Positions 27,299-32,163 of a stretch of DNA of 58,284 nt are shown one piece after another. The stretch's first letter is position 1. Each line of letters begins with the position of its first letter. The DNA comes from Acholeplasmatales bacterium (lineage in GTDB: Bacteria; Bacillota_I; Bacilli_A; Acholeplasmatales; Anaeroplasmataceae): the NCBI GenBank assembly GCA_017462645.1, contig JAFTQR010000015.1:1-58284 (forward strand), written 5' to 3'. The notes under the pieces are model-generated. The model was not told the DNA's origin, did not search any database, and saw only the letters and a list, made by a program, of their open reading frames with translations. The position numbers and the translations under genes were made by a program.

Positions 27299-27305
27299 TA
27301 AAATT

Positions 27306-27346
27306 AAAAAGAGGTGATCAAACAGTTTCGATTCACCTCTTTTTTA
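27306..27346. terminator. Bidirectional terminator
   Basis: AAAAAGAGGTGA...TCACCTCTTTTTT. Confidence 0.85.
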
Positions 27347-29947
27347 TTATCTAACAATTTTAATAGCTGTACAATTAGTACATAGCATCATCTTTAATGC
27401 ATCATCATCGAATGTTTCTGCATAAACAATCAGCTTACGGTCTAGTGTACCTCTAGCTTTTATTCTTAGAGTATTACCCTTTGCTACAATTTTTAATTCT
27501 TTAAGCTTTTCAATAGTTACCTCATCACCATTTTCAAAGTGATTGCTTAAAGTATCTAAATATACCGTAGCCTCTATTTCTTCTCCCTCAATTTCCTCAC
27601 CCATAATTACAGGAATATAATTTTGTAATCCAAATGGCATATTCTTAGGAATATTTCTAACATTTAAGGAACTAAATAAGTAATCAGTACTTAATCCTAA
27701 TGTAGCTAATATAGCTTCACCATTTGGAATTAATGATGGTAAGAAATTAGTAGGAATATAATTCTTCTTTGGCTTAACTAATCTATTAGCCATCATAATA
27801 TCAACTAATTCCTTAAAGTACTTTAAGCCTCTTTGAGAGCGTACCTTTATCATTACCGGTACTTCAGCATATTGCTTTTTACTTGATACATCCTTATATT
27901 TATACTTACTATTTTCTAATGATGCAGGATCTAATGCAAGACATACCTTAACAGATTTACCACCTAATGATACCTTAGCAACTAAGCCCTTATATCTAAA
28001 TGTTTCACATCTAGATGAGAATCTACCTTTAGCACGGTATTGTAATAAATAATTCTTTATTTCATTATAATATTCCTTTGTCTCATAATCAGCAAACATC
28101 ATTCTTGTATTAAAATTACGTTTAATACGTTTAGGAACTCCATCCTCATCTACAACCTTGAAAATTGGAGAAACAACAGTTCTTTCTCTTGCAAAAGATG
28201 CCTTAACTACATCAACCTCTTCCTCCTCAAGATCATCTTCTATATCGTCATCATCTTCTTCAGATTGATCATCTTCCTCAGATTCCTCTTCGCCCTCTTC
28301 AACTACCTCTTCTATATTTTCAGGTGAAATTTCATTACCATTTTCATCAACATAAACAACAACCTCAACTGTTTCTTCATCAGCTTCTTCAGGTTGAGCT
28401 TCAGTTTCTAAAACAGGCTCTTGTTGTTCCTCTACAGGTTCTTGTTGTTCCTCTACTTGTGCTTCATCAAGCTCAAGAGATAATTGCTCATATCCAATAT
28501 TAGGATCATCATCTATTTCTAATACTCCACCATTTTCTAAAGCCTCTAATTCTCTAACAAGTCTTTCATATTCCTCTTCAGATAATTGCTCTAATTCGGT
28601 AGGCTCTAATTCCTCATCTGATGGCATTTCATCAGCTAATGGTTGTTGTAATGACATAGGAGTATATTCAAAATCTAAGAAGCCCTTTTCATACTTCTTA
28701 TAGCGAACTAATTGTAAAATAATATTTATTACACCAAAGACTATAAAGGCTATTGTTGCAACCATTACAGGTGTTTCTTCAAATAAATATTTAATTTTTA
28801 CCTCCTCAACTAATAGGAAGCAAATAAATCCTATAAAAAATAATGTAATAATCATATTAAGATTAATTAGCTTATCAATAAATTTAATCTTTGCATAAGT
28901 AATCTTTCTTACGAATAAAGGTAAAATTAATAATAATCCTAAAATACCTGCGATTATATAGTAATAATAATCCTCCATTGGTAAAACTTCAAGCTCAAAC
29001 TTATCCATTAAATGATTTAAAGGATTTAAGTCTATCATAGCAAAATAATAAAATGTTATTAATAAGGTAGCAATAATAATTGGCATTACTAAACCATTTT
29101 TAGCAAATGATTCCTTATAATATCTATTAATTTTAATCTTAGAATTCTTTTCCTCTACTCTATTAAATGTTACACCTCTAATTATCAAGGCTAAAGCTAC
29201 TAATGTACCACCTAAAATGACATATTCATATACATTATTATTTAATATTGTTGCCAAACCAAATAAATATGTATATCCAAATGTAACAATAACAATAATT
29301 GCGATTAATAATGAATATGCAATCGCATCCATAAAGTTAGCTCTTTTTGTATCTGAGCCTAAGCCAGCAATAATTGTTGTAATAAATATTCCACCACAAA
29401 CTAGAATATACATTTCAATTAAATTATTAAATTTATCAAATAAATCATTAAGCTCATGAATAGCATAAATACCAATTCCAAAGCCTAAAATTGTTAATAA
29501 AATATAATTATATTTTCCAAATAATGATGCAGTAAAGCCTTTAATTCCTGTAGAATTTCCGTCAAACCTACCAGCAATTAATCTAATTAGCACCTCTATA
29601 GCTAATATACTACATACTGCAATATAATAAATCATACTAGCAAATGGTATATCTCCATCCACTAATAGCATAATAAATCTACCTACAATAGATAATAATC
29701 CTACGACTCTTAAAAAATCTATGCCTGACATTTGTCTAGTTCCTAAGCTTGATAAACCAGCAAGTGCTATACCAATATACAATGCATAAAAGGTATAATC
29801 GACTGCTGAGACAAAACCACTGCTTACTCCGAAATTTGTTAAAAGCTCACCTATAGAGTTCCAAACAAATATCATAGCTAATGAAACTAATAATATAGTA
29901 AAAATACCATATAAATTAGACAAGCCACGGATAAAACCCTTCTTCAT
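27347..29947 (-). CDS. Multi-pass membrane protein with an acidic linker, a DUF5655-like domain and a C-terminal ribosomal uL15-like domain
   Basis: About 12 hydrophobic helices (aa 1-415) and an E/D-rich stretch (aa ~438-580). The last 75 aa (VYLDTL..FENGDEVTIEKLKELKIV...LRIKARGTLDRKLIVYAETFDDDALKMM) align by eye with the uL15 globular domain. Confidence 0.8.
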   Translation of the reverse strand: MKKGFIRGLSNLYGIFTILLVSLAMIFVWNSIGELLTNFGVSSGFVSAVDYTFYALYIGIALAGLSSLGTRQMSGIDFLRVVGLLSIVGRFIMLLVDGDIPFASMIYYIAVCSILAIEVLIRLIAGRFDGNSTGIKGFTASLFGKYNYILLTILGFGIGIYAIHELNDLFDKFNNLIEMYILVCGGIFITTIIAGLGSDTKRANFMDAIAYSLLIAIIVIVTFGYTYLFGLATILNNNVYEYVILGGTLVALALIIRGVTFNRVEEKNSKIKINRYYKESFAKNGLVMPIIIATLLITFYYFAMIDLNPLNHLMDKFELEVLPMEDYYYYIIAGILGLLLILPLFVRKITYAKIKFIDKLINLNMIITLFFIGFICFLLVEEVKIKYLFEETPVMVATIAFIVFGVINIILQLVRYKKYEKGFLDFEYTPMSLQQPLADEMPSDEELEPTELEQLSEEEYERLVRELEALENGGVLEIDDDPNIGYEQLSLELDEAQVEEQQEPVEEQQEPVLETEAQPEEADEETVEVVVYVDENGNEISPENIEEVVEEGEEESEEDDQSEEDDDDIEDDLEEEEVDVVKASFARERTVVSPIFKVVDEDGVPKRIKRNFNTRMMFADYETKEYYNEIKNYLLQYRAKGRFSSRCETFRYKGLVAKVSLGGKSVKVCLALDPASLENSKYKYKDVSSKKQYAEVPVMIKVRSQRGLKYFKELVDIMMANRLVKPKKNYIPTNFLPSLIPNGEAILATLGLSTDYLFSSLNVRNIPKNMPFGLQNYIPVIMGEEIEGEEIEATVYLDTLSNHFENGDEVTIEKLKELKIVAKGNTLRIKARGTLDRKLIVYAETFDDDALKMMLCTNCTAIKIVR
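28413..28456. repeat. 21-nt tandem repeat (2 copies) encoding VEEQQEP
   Basis: acaggctcttgttgttcctct / acaggttcttgttgttcctct. Confidence 0.9.
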
Positions 29948-30070
29948 AAAATTATCGCTCCTTTAAACAAAAAAATCATACATTTTAATTGTAATATTTT
30001 TATTAGTCAAATTCAATCAAAATGATAATATAATTTACAATTTTAGACATTTTTTTATTTTTATAACAAA

Positions 30071-30107
30071 ATAAAGCTCGAATTGTTAAATTAAATTCGA
30101 GTTTTAT
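30071..30107 (-). terminator. phoH operon terminator
   Basis: CTCGAATT...AATTCGAG inverted repeat with flanking A/T tracts. Confidence 0.7.
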
Positions 30108-30109
30108 TA

Positions 30110-31063
30110 TTAATTATTTGTTTTTTCAAATTTTTCAATTATCTTAGCTACTAAAGGATGTCTTACTACATCACATTTATCAAATACTATTAAGCCTACC
30201 TCATCTAAATCAGATAATAGTTCTGCACTTATTTTTAAACCTGATTTCTTAGAATTAGGTAAATCTATTTGAGAGATATCTCCAGTAACAAGCATTTTAG
30301 AATTAAAGCCTAATCTTGTTAAAAACATTTTTAATTGATCTATAGTTGCATTTTGTGCCTCATCTAATATAATAAACGCCTTTTCTAAAGTTCTGCCTCT
30401 CATATAAGCTAATGGTGCTATTTCTATAACCTGCTTTTCTATAAGCATAGATACCTGTTCAACACCAAGCATATCATATAAGGCATCATATAATGGTCTT
30501 AAATAAGGATCTACCTTTTCCTTTAAATCACCTGGCAAGAAGCCTAATGACTCACCAGCCTCTACTGCTGGTCTTGTTAAAATGATTTTATCAATATTTC
30601 CCTTTTTTAATTCAGCTACAGCATAGCATACTGCTAAATAGGTTTTACCTGTACCTGCAGCACCTATCGAAAATACTAAATCATGCTTAATCATTTCCTT
30701 AATATATTCATCCTGTTTTAAGGTTTTAGCATATATAGGCTTATTATGTATTGTATGAGCTATAGGCTTTCTTTTAGATAAAAAGCTTAAATACTTTTCC
30801 TTTTTACCATCATTTACAATACTATTAGCATAAATTACATCTCTAGGAGAAATATTAAATGATAATTTAGACATTTCTAATAATATTTCAAATAGCTCAT
30901 TTAGCTTATCATAAGAATCTAAATTATCACTACATAAAATATCATTTCCATGAATAGCAATATGACAATTATATAAATTCTCTATAACCTTGATGTTTGC
31001 GTTATTAATACCAGACATGTTTTTAGCATCTAAAGCATTATTAACATAGATATTAAGCTTCAT
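30110..31063 (-). CDS. phoH: PhoH family protein
   Basis: GAAGTGKT, RPAVEAGESLGFLPG, YMRGRT, LDEAQN, VVRHPLV. Confidence 0.96.
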   Translation of the reverse strand: MKLNIYVNNALDAKNMSGINNANIKVIENLYNCHIAIHGNDILCSDNLDSYDKLNELFEILLEMSKLSFNISPRDVIYANSIVNDGKKEKYLSFLSKRKPIAHTIHNKPIYAKTLKQDEYIKEMIKHDLVFSIGAAGTGKTYLAVCYAVAELKKGNIDKIILTRPAVEAGESLGFLPGDLKEKVDPYLRPLYDALYDMLGVEQVSMLIEKQVIEIAPLAYMRGRTLEKAFIILDEAQNATIDQLKMFLTRLGFNSKMLVTGDISQIDLPNSKKSGLKISAELLSDLDEVGLIVFDKCDVVRHPLVAKIIEKFEKTNN

Positions 31064-31077
31064 TCAATCAATCCCTT

Positions 31078-32163
31078 CTAGTAATGCGAAAATTCACCTA
31101 TCGATTCTATTTTTTTGACTATAAAAGTAAAACAATATAAATCATCCGTTTCATTATAGTTATATTCTACTATATCAGTAATCTTTTCTAATTCATATAT
31201 TCTTTTATTATTAAAATCATTAATAATTCTATTTTGAGCCTCTAATACTGCCTCATCACGAGTATACCTTTTAATTATATCATTTTTTTCATGTTCTTCA
31301 ATTTTTTTAATAGAAAAAAAGTCAAATAGATTAAATATATTATTACTATTCTTGTCCGATATTAAATAATTATTATTTTTATTAATATCAAAGCTATTAT
31401 CAAACAATGATAATTGGTAATAGCTTTGATACTCTCCCTCCTCTAATATACTTTCTTCCTTTTTAATTTCGATATAGACCTTATCATAAACATAGCCTAA
31501 TACTAATCCTTGAGAGCCTGTTAATTGATTATTAAGTGTTTTACCACTTATTAATACATCTCCCTTTTTTACGAATTTATTTTTATATATGTTACTTGTT
31601 CCACTATAAATATAATATTCATCTACAATACTATCTCTTGTGGCTATAATATCACCATTTTTATCTATATTATTAGATGGATAATCTATATCATGACAAT
31701 ATATATTTACATATATATCATTATTTTTAGCATATACATCAATATATGGATATTCAGAATATTCTCTTTGAAGATTATAAGATAATTGATCATAATTTAT
31801 ATTAGAAAAATTAAACCATAATAAGTTTTTAAATTGTTTTTGAATTTTGTTTTTAATTGTATTATTTATTGGTTTTTCTTTATTTTATTTTTTTTCATCT
31901 AATCTATATGAATTTATATATAATAGTGAAAAGAAAAATAATAATCCTATAATTAATAGATGATATTTTTTCATAAAATAATTAAACTTAATTTTAAATG
32001 AATCCTCTAAATAATATTTATATCCACTATCCTTAATAATATTATAAGAGCCTAATTCAACCTTAAAGGAAACCTCATCCTTTAAAACATTTACATCATT
32101 TGCCGCAATTCTATTATGAATCTTAAAAAAATCATCCTTCTTCATTTTTATTTTGTAGTTCAT
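31078..32163 (-). pseudogene. yqfD: Sporulation protein YqfD interrupted by one in-frame TAA (31885-31887); pseudogene or sequencing error
   Basis: Both ORF-track pieces are in the same frame. The intervening sequence is open and reads GDIIATRDSIV...KFVKKGDVLISG (YqfD motif). yqfC-yqfD-phoH synteny. Confidence 0.8.

Follow-up and report, generated by a model that had tools for sequence, protein, structure and literature searches.

What does the globular domain of a ribosomal protein do at the end of a large membrane protein? This question is raised by a gene in the window analysed here, a 58,284-nucleotide stretch of an Acholeplasmatales bacterium (contig JAFTQR010000015.1 of assembly GCA_017462645.1). 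The gene, from a gut Anaeroplasma, encodes a membrane domain, an acidic linker, a basic domain that we call M, and a C-terminal domain related to ribosomal protein uL15 that we call U (Table 1). Sequence comparison and structure models establish the 12-helix anchor, the cytoplasmic orientation, the linker, both folds of the tail, and the portability and conservation of that tail; from these we infer that the tail may bind nucleic acid. The explanation that we favour, tentatively and at somewhat less than an even chance, is that the membrane domain anchors the protein, the acidic arm gives it reach, M grips nucleic acid, probably nucleoid DNA, and U serves as an auxiliary cap. The membrane-M-U protein is real and uncharacterised, and a literature search, mostly outside subscription journals, found no description of this architecture.

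Table 1. Coordinates of the membrane-M-U gene, the domains that it encodes and the flanking signals in the window
Feature	Position	Strand	Remarks
Whole gene	27347..29947	-	866 residues: 12 membrane helices, acidic linker, M, cap and U
Membrane domain, residues 5-418	28694..29935	-	repeats at residues 5-125, 135-259 and 272-418
Acidic linker, residues 436-580	28208..28642	-	66 Asp+Glu and 2 Lys+Arg in 145 residues
M domain, residues 606-735	27743..28132	-	basic alpha/beta, YjbR/YdhG/MotA-CTD-like fold; conserved family core
Connector and cap, residues 736-790	27578..27742	-	replaces the uL15 N-terminal arm; predicted fold unit with M and U
U domain, residues 791-866	27350..27577	-	uL15 globular domain, derived form
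Hairpin with U-runs on both strands	27300..27345		between the gene and a convergent malic-enzyme-like gene; z -5.3 and -4.9
Sigma-70-type promoter candidate, TTGAAT-17-TACAAT	29988..30016	-	leader only about 35 nucleotides
Hairpin 3' of the upstream phoH	30075..30105	-	z -3.9

The uL15-like character of the C-terminus, claimed in a first-pass annotation of this DNA, was confirmed in both sequence and fold. PF00828 matched the last 84 residues at 23.4 bits (cut-off 21.5, E 8e-5; 18.3 bits within the whole protein), the 14 best of 17 PDB sequence matches to U were all L15 (best E 3.8e-4), the U model superposed on the uL15 chain 8fn2_N with a Z score of 10.3 (root-mean-square deviation (rmsd) 2.3, 78 residues), and the top 49 rows of a Foldseek search with U were ribosomal chains. 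The arm that threads into ribosomal RNA (rRNA) at the N-terminus of ribosomal uL15 is absent, as had also been claimed: TIGR01071 reached only 21.2 bits (cut-off 77.95) and matched profile positions 74-138 of 144 only, so U is not the full-length rplO product that this profile, arm included, describes. Compared with ribosomal uL15 (RplO; PF00828, TIGR01071), the C-terminal globular domain of U is alike in sequence and fold, but the protein lacks the arm, is an 866-residue membrane fusion, lies outside the spc operon and coexists with a real rplO; in addition, conserved Asn, Leu and Ser positions are replaced and the last helix is newly hydrophobic. The gene is flanked by phoH and a malic-enzyme-like gene and does not stand between rpmD and secY, the position of rplO in the spc operon. 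The protein belongs to the uL15 domain superfamily but is not ribosomal uL15. The NCBI label 'uL15 family ribosomal protein' is found on the less-derived relatives, membrane fusions of 370-940 residues (P0301, P0308, P0310, P0329 and others); for such fusions it is a misannotation, and the mislabelled proteins can contaminate marker-gene sets.

The fusion itself is neither a misassembly nor a chance event; both are excluded by the homologs, 117 of the best 120 of which have the same membrane domain, and by a bridging contig from an independent study, which spans 27767-30400 (membrane domain, linker and M), while a second contig covers 27397-27795. A search with the module returned 526 matches of similar length, labelled Anaeroplasma or Acholeplasmatales. 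Among 27 genomes of the genus, 25 carry the full module (E < 1e-110); in the wider family, 78 of 79 genomes have a match to M of some kind. At 64.6% completeness, the source genome (G000) contains none of rplO, secY and rpsE, and the missing rplO reflects an absent spc contig. In the congeners tested (5/5), a normal rplO stands in its operon in addition to the fusion, within an intact rplR-rpsE-rpmD-rplO-secY cluster on contigs other than that of the fusion gene. This separate rplO, whose existence elsewhere had been left as a point to check, excludes the fusion gene as the sole rplO of the cell.

As judged from sequence, M is the constant and best-conserved part of the tail. Within the genus, identity is 71-81% for M, 56-75% for U and 21-29% for the membrane domain, compared with 66-77% for PhoH and 76-87% for Lon. 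The last 277 residues were modelled as one unit (predicted local distance difference test (pLDDT) 92.8, predicted template modelling score (pTM) 0.84, 45 sequences), whereas a homodimer prediction of the module scored 0.00 in two runs, a result with no bearing either way. The basic alpha/beta domain noticed at first sight proved to be M, with a 'double-wing' fold; residues 581-735 hold 34 Lys+Arg against 15 Asp+Glu. Five chains with the YjbR/CyaY-like version of this fold matched at Z 6.4-7.3 over 99-106 residues, placing M in the fold as a whole rather than in one sub-family: a YdhG-like protein (9t2w; Z 7.3, rmsd 3.7, 106 residues), a DUF419 protein (2a1v; Z 7.0), PSPTO_3016 (Z 6.8), YjbR (Z 6.6) and the DNA-bound C-terminal domain of MotA (5jlt; Z 6.4, rmsd 3.1, 100 residues). 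A search of PDB sequences with M gave no match, and a search of the Atlas gave a top score of 0.78, with DUF5655 at 15% of one cluster, which is a lead only. DUF5655 was passed by one of 44 whole proteins, P0187, a distant multi-repeat relative. Isolated M domains (3/3) matched the PDC-S18 profiles of PADLOC over their C-terminal part at E 3e-7. M has a known fold but is a member of no curated family and has no family model or name.

Among 323 M domains the median net charge is +9 and 96% are net positive, and conserved Lys or Arg residues (72-96%) at positions 615, 631, 640, 642, 653, 658, 664, 701, 703, 706 and 709 lie mostly on or beside the beta strands. The iron-binding frataxin/YdhG proteins carry an acidic, metal-binding surface, which M does not have; because almost all copies are net basic, charge separates M from its frataxin-like fold matches. 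The accessible text of PMC7641849 describes YjbR-type domains as predicted DNA binders with electrostatics unlike those of CyaY, and that of PMC3424535 likewise reports them as predicted DNA binders. In general, M shares its alpha/beta fold with YjbR/MmcQ (PF04237), MotA-CTD, YdhG/DUF1801 and DUF5655 at Z 6.4-7.3; it is basic like the DNA-binding members of the 'double-wing' group and linked in sequence to the PDC-S18 C-terminus, but it differs from them by a C-terminal extension, tandem arrays and a tail position on membrane proteins.

The tail is portable. A paralog in the source genome (C32:9314-16429, plus strand, L002) is 2,365 residues long and ends in the same 281 residues, 75% identical. 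It is a type I surface protein with a signal peptide, an acidic helical region, Ig/MBG-like repeats and one membrane helix, and its tail likewise stands behind an acidic linker. A recent tail swap between the two paralogs was considered: their tails show a synonymous difference of 0.32, compared with 0.31-0.53 for 11 orthologs, and a quick U tree on 77 columns groups them with a Shimodaira-Hasegawa-like approximate likelihood-ratio test (SH-aLRT) support of 98. The full search with the tail returned 3,144 clusters at 50% identity. Architectures were counted in the representatives of the best 150 of these 3,144 clusters, a sample biased to high scores: all carry M, 105 of them in 2-7 copies, and a membrane helix lies upstream of the first M in 108. 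U is present in 83 of the 150, never without M, and is C-terminal in 81 of these 83. The hosts of M include giant surface, GGDEF-EAL, SipW-type peptidase, DUF2357-like, MBG-repeat and CBM20 proteins. One-helix anchors carry the tail as well (111 of 114 proteins compared have an N-terminal helix, several being labelled Clostridia or Bacilli), and four-helix membrane anchors also carry M. All 25 M proteins inspected, from 23 genomes of family f7, are without U, and five M-bearing f7 and f2 genomes hold only canonical uL15.

The distribution of M was scored in one draw of about 400 genomes of the phylum (399 scored). M was present in families f1 (11/11), f7 (42/42), f16 (6/6), f18 (1/1), f2 (3/30) and f20 (1/7); the remaining 24 families of the draw gave no match to this query. 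Neither M, used to scan viral contigs, nor P0147, used on metagenome contigs, gave any match; both scans reach close relatives only. Every sampled genome of f7, f1 and f16, families of uncultured gut bacteria, contains M, which makes it a core gene there. If the account given here is true, a ribosomal-protein domain would have been reused in the tails of thousands of membrane proteins, an unusual kind of co-option. M is also found in a soluble setting: L057:5634-6497 encodes a soluble 288-residue protein with an N-terminal M and a CBM20 starch-binding domain, and M proteins of similar size recur in family f1. In family f7 (L046, L047, L053, L058), a four-helix M gene stands near guanylate kinase and a cluster with a Tad/T2SSE-type ATPase.

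In the mechanism that we favour, the portable cytoplasmic tail would bind nucleic acid and hold it at the membrane; the most probable target is nucleoid DNA, gripped regardless of sequence. M may use its basic beta-sheet to bind a phosphate backbone, in the manner of the C-terminal domain of MotA, and the tandem M copies in relatives would add avidity. The acidic linker would give reach and may also be an intramolecular competitor, and the fast-evolving membrane domain may act as an anchor or as a partner-binding scaffold. U would have been captured from rplO as an auxiliary RNA-binding cap, which in this clade may since have become structural or changed its specificity. Analogous tethers are the LEM/HeH proteins of the inner nuclear membrane and ribosome receptors such as the Oxa1/YidC2 tail and p180. 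If M tethers the nucleoid or ribosomes, it would offer a testable handle on the interior organisation of small-genome and wall-less cells, and the soluble module of 277 residues is open to expression and assay. A wider reading, which is conceivable but on balance unlikely, is that a modular M+U tag, acting at the inner face of the membrane, fastens membrane and surface proteins by the dozen to the nucleoid or to ribosomes. It would cover the gut Anaeroplasmataceae, related small-genome Bacilli and some Clostridia, with hosts from 2,400-residue adhesins to pilus-assembly parts; the tag would be a bacterial LEM/HeH counterpart, interchangeable with HeH in sister lineages, and the 12-helix protein the core anchor of Anaeroplasma.

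The first-pass annotation had placed the function in the uL15-like domain, as a dock for ribosomes or assembly intermediates, RNA or DNA at the membrane. The co-opted uL15 globule on a long acidic cytoplasmic arm and the conserved fusion stand, but U is optional, its rplO residues are replaced and M is the better-conserved domain; its fallback, in which the protein docks RNA or DNA at the membrane, fits better, with ribosome docking possible mainly for a less-derived class of U. In the 120 orthologs, positions kept by rplO are substituted, Asn by Tyr796 (97%), Leu by Lys830 (96%) and Ser by Asp847 (97%), and the conserved rplO motifs V-N, K-V-L-G-x-G and F-S are replaced by V-Y, R-I-K-A-R-G and F-D; R-I-K at 828-830 and F-D at 846-847 are the ortholog versions of K-V-L and F-S. 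In contrast, 113 less-derived copies, from single-helix M-U proteins of Clostridia and Bacilli, retain Asn in 100%, K-V-L in 100/97/100% and F-S in 96/99%. These less-derived copies are basic (median net charge +4), whereas the orthologs are neutral (median -1). All grades of U have a hydrophobic last helix, with K-M at 852-853 in 97-99% (K-A in rplO), and an upstream cap in place of the rRNA-threading arm. In the quick tree, U occurs in grades from rplO-like to fully derived, a gradient that displays the process of co-option.

These grades bear on the possibility that U docks ribosomes, or 50S assembly intermediates free of uL15, at the membrane and so localises the translation of membrane and giant surface proteins. 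Such docking would be consistent with U being a true uL15 globule, with the rplO residues and basic charge of the less-derived copies, and with the stabilisation of the H29/H31/H88 region by uL15 described in the accessible part of 10.1101/2022.03.10.483802. The usual position of phoH upstream points the same way, as does the occurrence on ribosomal proteins of HeH tails, which swap with M (see below). However, every U is accompanied by M, while 67 of the 150 representatives and all of the f7 proteins inspected do without U, the N-terminal arm is absent, and phoH is split off by a hairpin and a promoter candidate. The uL15 site is, moreover, already occupied in the mature 50S subunit. Because the neutral U of this clade has lost the Asn and Ser kept by rplO, with N, L and S turned into Y, K and D, ribosome docking through U is doubtful here; the substituted positions presumably face the H31 loop of 23S rRNA. 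The R-I-K-A-R-G loop of the derived U remains basic, so that altered RNA-binding specificity is as possible as its loss. On this evidence we consider ribosome docking quite improbable.

The variety of hosts allows another explanation, in which the tail is a localisation tag: M, with or without U, would bind a protein scaffold, anionic lipid or further M domains at the inner face of the membrane and cluster membrane and surface proteins, so that adhesins, SipW/CoCoPALM parts and cyclic diguanylate (c-di-GMP) enzymes are gathered in one patch or pole. This is unlikely, though several observations fit it. The DUF2357 fusions led to loci that hold a membrane AAA-type protein, a DUF2357-like partner and SipW peptidases, together with SipW-substrate-like proteins, EAL proteins and giant surface proteins, and these loci match the CoCoPALM systems as described in the accessible text of Bell et al. 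2024 (eLife, PMC11090510; also PMC10542128). M relatives are fused to the DUF2357/McrC-like, SipW-type (L095, L107; E 1e-12 to 1e-14, below the cut-off) and neighbouring EAL proteins of CoCoPALM, so that the tail sits on many parts of one type of surface-assembly locus, and DUF2357-like proteins make up 18 of the 150 representatives. The near-uniform conservation of M fits a protein partner, and all classes of U share the new hydrophobic C-terminal helix, which is, however, explicable by packing on the cap. The conserved surface of M is strongly basic, which counts against a localisation tag, as does the fact that M does not track CoCoPALM: DUF2357-like genes occur in 1 of 12 f7 genomes, where M is fixed, but in 11 of 12 f2 genomes, where M is rare. 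This distribution excludes M as a dedicated CoCoPALM part; M decorates parts of such loci but does not follow the loci across families, which points to a general tag. The membrane-M-U gene itself lies outside any such locus, in a housekeeping neighbourhood without a membrane McrB-like GTPase, DUF2357 or signal peptidases nearby, and the main text and four text supplements of PMC11090510 make no mention of L15, YjbR or DUF5655.

The source genome contains a CoCoPALM-like locus (C8:3-5280, minus strand, L124) with two SipW-substrate-like proteins, a SipW-type peptidase, a four-helix AAA-type protein of 605 residues and, truncated where the contig ends, a DUF2357-like gene. Clusters of SipW, membrane McrB-like, DUF2357, GGDEF-EAL and giant surface proteins (L114-L123, L159) are widespread in Acholeplasmatales and relatives, with 36 of 150 genomes positive; they imply c-di-GMP-linked surface fibres in wall-less bacteria.

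A further line of evidence comes from what replaces M. In family f2, where M is rare, Rho_N/HeH takes its place at the end of two proteins, an EAL membrane protein (L122) and one that is DUF2357-like (L159), and the accessible text of 10.64898/2026.10.19.760177 describes HeH domains as nucleic-acid-binding modules. Across the genome draw described above, M and Rho_N are largely complementary: all sampled members of f7 (42/42 with M against 1/42 with Rho_N) and f16 (6/6 against 0/6) have M, whereas in families with Rho_N throughout, M is rare (f2, 3/30 against 30/30) or missing (f3, 0/7 against 7/7; f4, 0/13 against 13/13; f14, 0/16 against 16/16). Like the membrane-M-U protein, bacterial membrane proteins with Rho_N/HeH tails combine an anchor, a long charged spacer and a small terminal binding domain, and HeH replaces M on orthologous hosts; the fold of M is unrelated, and tethering by M or U would be a putative function. 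Rho_N/HeH tails also occur in Acholeplasmatales (L129-L168) on an ABC (ATP-binding cassette) ATPase and on membrane proteins, and are nearly absent from Anaeroplasma (1/8 genomes).

How the tail is held at the membrane was addressed with models of the N-terminal part. The AlphaFold model of residues 5-418 (79 sequences; pLDDT 92.5, pTM 0.91) shows 12 long helices and three short ones at the repeat starts, each repeat consisting of a short helix and four membrane helices; a hydropathy scan gave 11 segments, and the earlier count of about 12 helices agrees with the model. Comparing the thirds with hhalign supports the three-fold repeat (probability 97/93/90%). Basic residues (Lys+Arg) are concentrated on the side of the termini, with 26 in the N-terminus, even loops and C-terminal flank and 4 in the odd loops, which places the tail in the cytoplasm. 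Foldseek found no match to known folds at E <= 0.001, and a wide structure search gave a best Z of 8.1, over one repeat only, with Atlas matches below 0.9; no known fold can be assigned to the membrane domain, which does not in itself make the fold new. The four-helix anchor of family f7 was considered as a homolog of one membrane repeat, for which the comparison gave no support (hhalign probability 1-5%).

Each repeat carries one invariant or near-invariant Asp (D77, D207, D358) and Arg (R122, R257, R415). Twelve helices in a three-fold repeat with these charged residues would suit a transporter, channel or sensor whose 3x4-helix domain moves or senses a solute while the M-U tail acts as its regulator or passes on a signal. 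The major facilitator superfamily (MFS) and other known 12-helix transporters have a 2x6- or 4x3-helix organisation, which differs from the three repeats of four seen here. The membrane domain is, however, far less conserved within the genus than M, and the same tail occurs on one-helix, four-helix and type I surface proteins, hence independently of the 12-helix domain; a solute-handling function is accordingly very unlikely.

The linker, which had been described as about 140 residues and highly acidic, is of that length and composition (Table 1) and is probably disordered, as its composition suggests. The spacer between helix 12 and M is 138-240 residues long in 113 orthologs, with 38-49% Asp/Glu. 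A short V-D-E-N-G hairpin-type motif (28360-28330, minus strand) lies in the linker and is present in the C32 paralog too; it occurs in 68 of 120 orthologs, several of which have a precomputed SSSPR-51 match.

The homology between M and the C-terminal part of the defence candidate PDC-S18 suggests yet another role, that of a membrane-bound sensor of incoming DNA, from phage or uptake, working with nucleases or the Tad/Com machinery. M is also fused to McrC-like DUF2357, and a T2SSE-type ATPase cluster is found 2-5 genes away from the M gene in several genomes of f7. Against such a sensor, the 866-residue protein has no effector domain, and the gene is single-copy, syntenic and conserved at housekeeping level, unlike patchy, fast-evolving defence genes. 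We therefore regard it as a slim possibility.

Several observations weigh against the favoured tethering of nucleic acid by M. Among the 150 representatives, 41 have no predicted membrane helix (18 are DUF2357-like, and some may be fragments), and the invariance of the intramembrane Asp and Arg residues exceeds the obvious need of a passive anchor. The fold matches of M are tied at Z < 8, with iron-binding frataxin/YdhG proteins among them, and isolated M domains fall below every threshold of the 'double-wing' Pfam families (DUF5655 PF18899, DUF1801, YjbR PF04237; 0/19 at E <= 0.1). The alternation of M with HeH has exceptions, since both occur together in 7 of the 11 f1 genomes and neither is present in f5, f11, f13, f15 and f26; it comprises few independent lineages, in which related genomes are not independent, and is a lead only. 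HeH tails also occur on bL20, uS2 and trigger factor, so that the shared target could be RNA or ribosomes and not DNA. Finally, none of the neighbouring genes points to chromosome segregation.

The gene begins with ATG, preceded by a Shine-Dalgarno-like AAAGGAG at 29958-29964. The promoter candidate comes from a scan that was overall no richer than shuffles (18 against 20.6); by eye, most of 12 orthologs have similar hexamers and short leaders upstream. The terminator assigned to the gene in the earlier annotation corresponds to the stable hairpin after the stop codon, which is likely a bidirectional terminator, although a simple terminator scan did not list it (z -5.3). The hairpin behind phoH likely separates phoH, the usual upstream neighbour (18 of 23 loci, among which two pairs represent one contig each), from the membrane-M-U gene. 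With its own hairpin and promoter candidate in front and a hairpin behind, the gene is likely transcribed alone. Autoregulation via an rRNA-like leader was rejected, since the leaders of the orthologs seen are short and unconserved, and an RNA lookup listed no RNA holder. Upstream of phoH, a yqfD-like gene (31078-32163, minus strand) is split into open reading frames of 92 and 109 residues and is either a pseudogene or an assembly error; in congeners it is a single frame of about 360 residues in several and missing in others.

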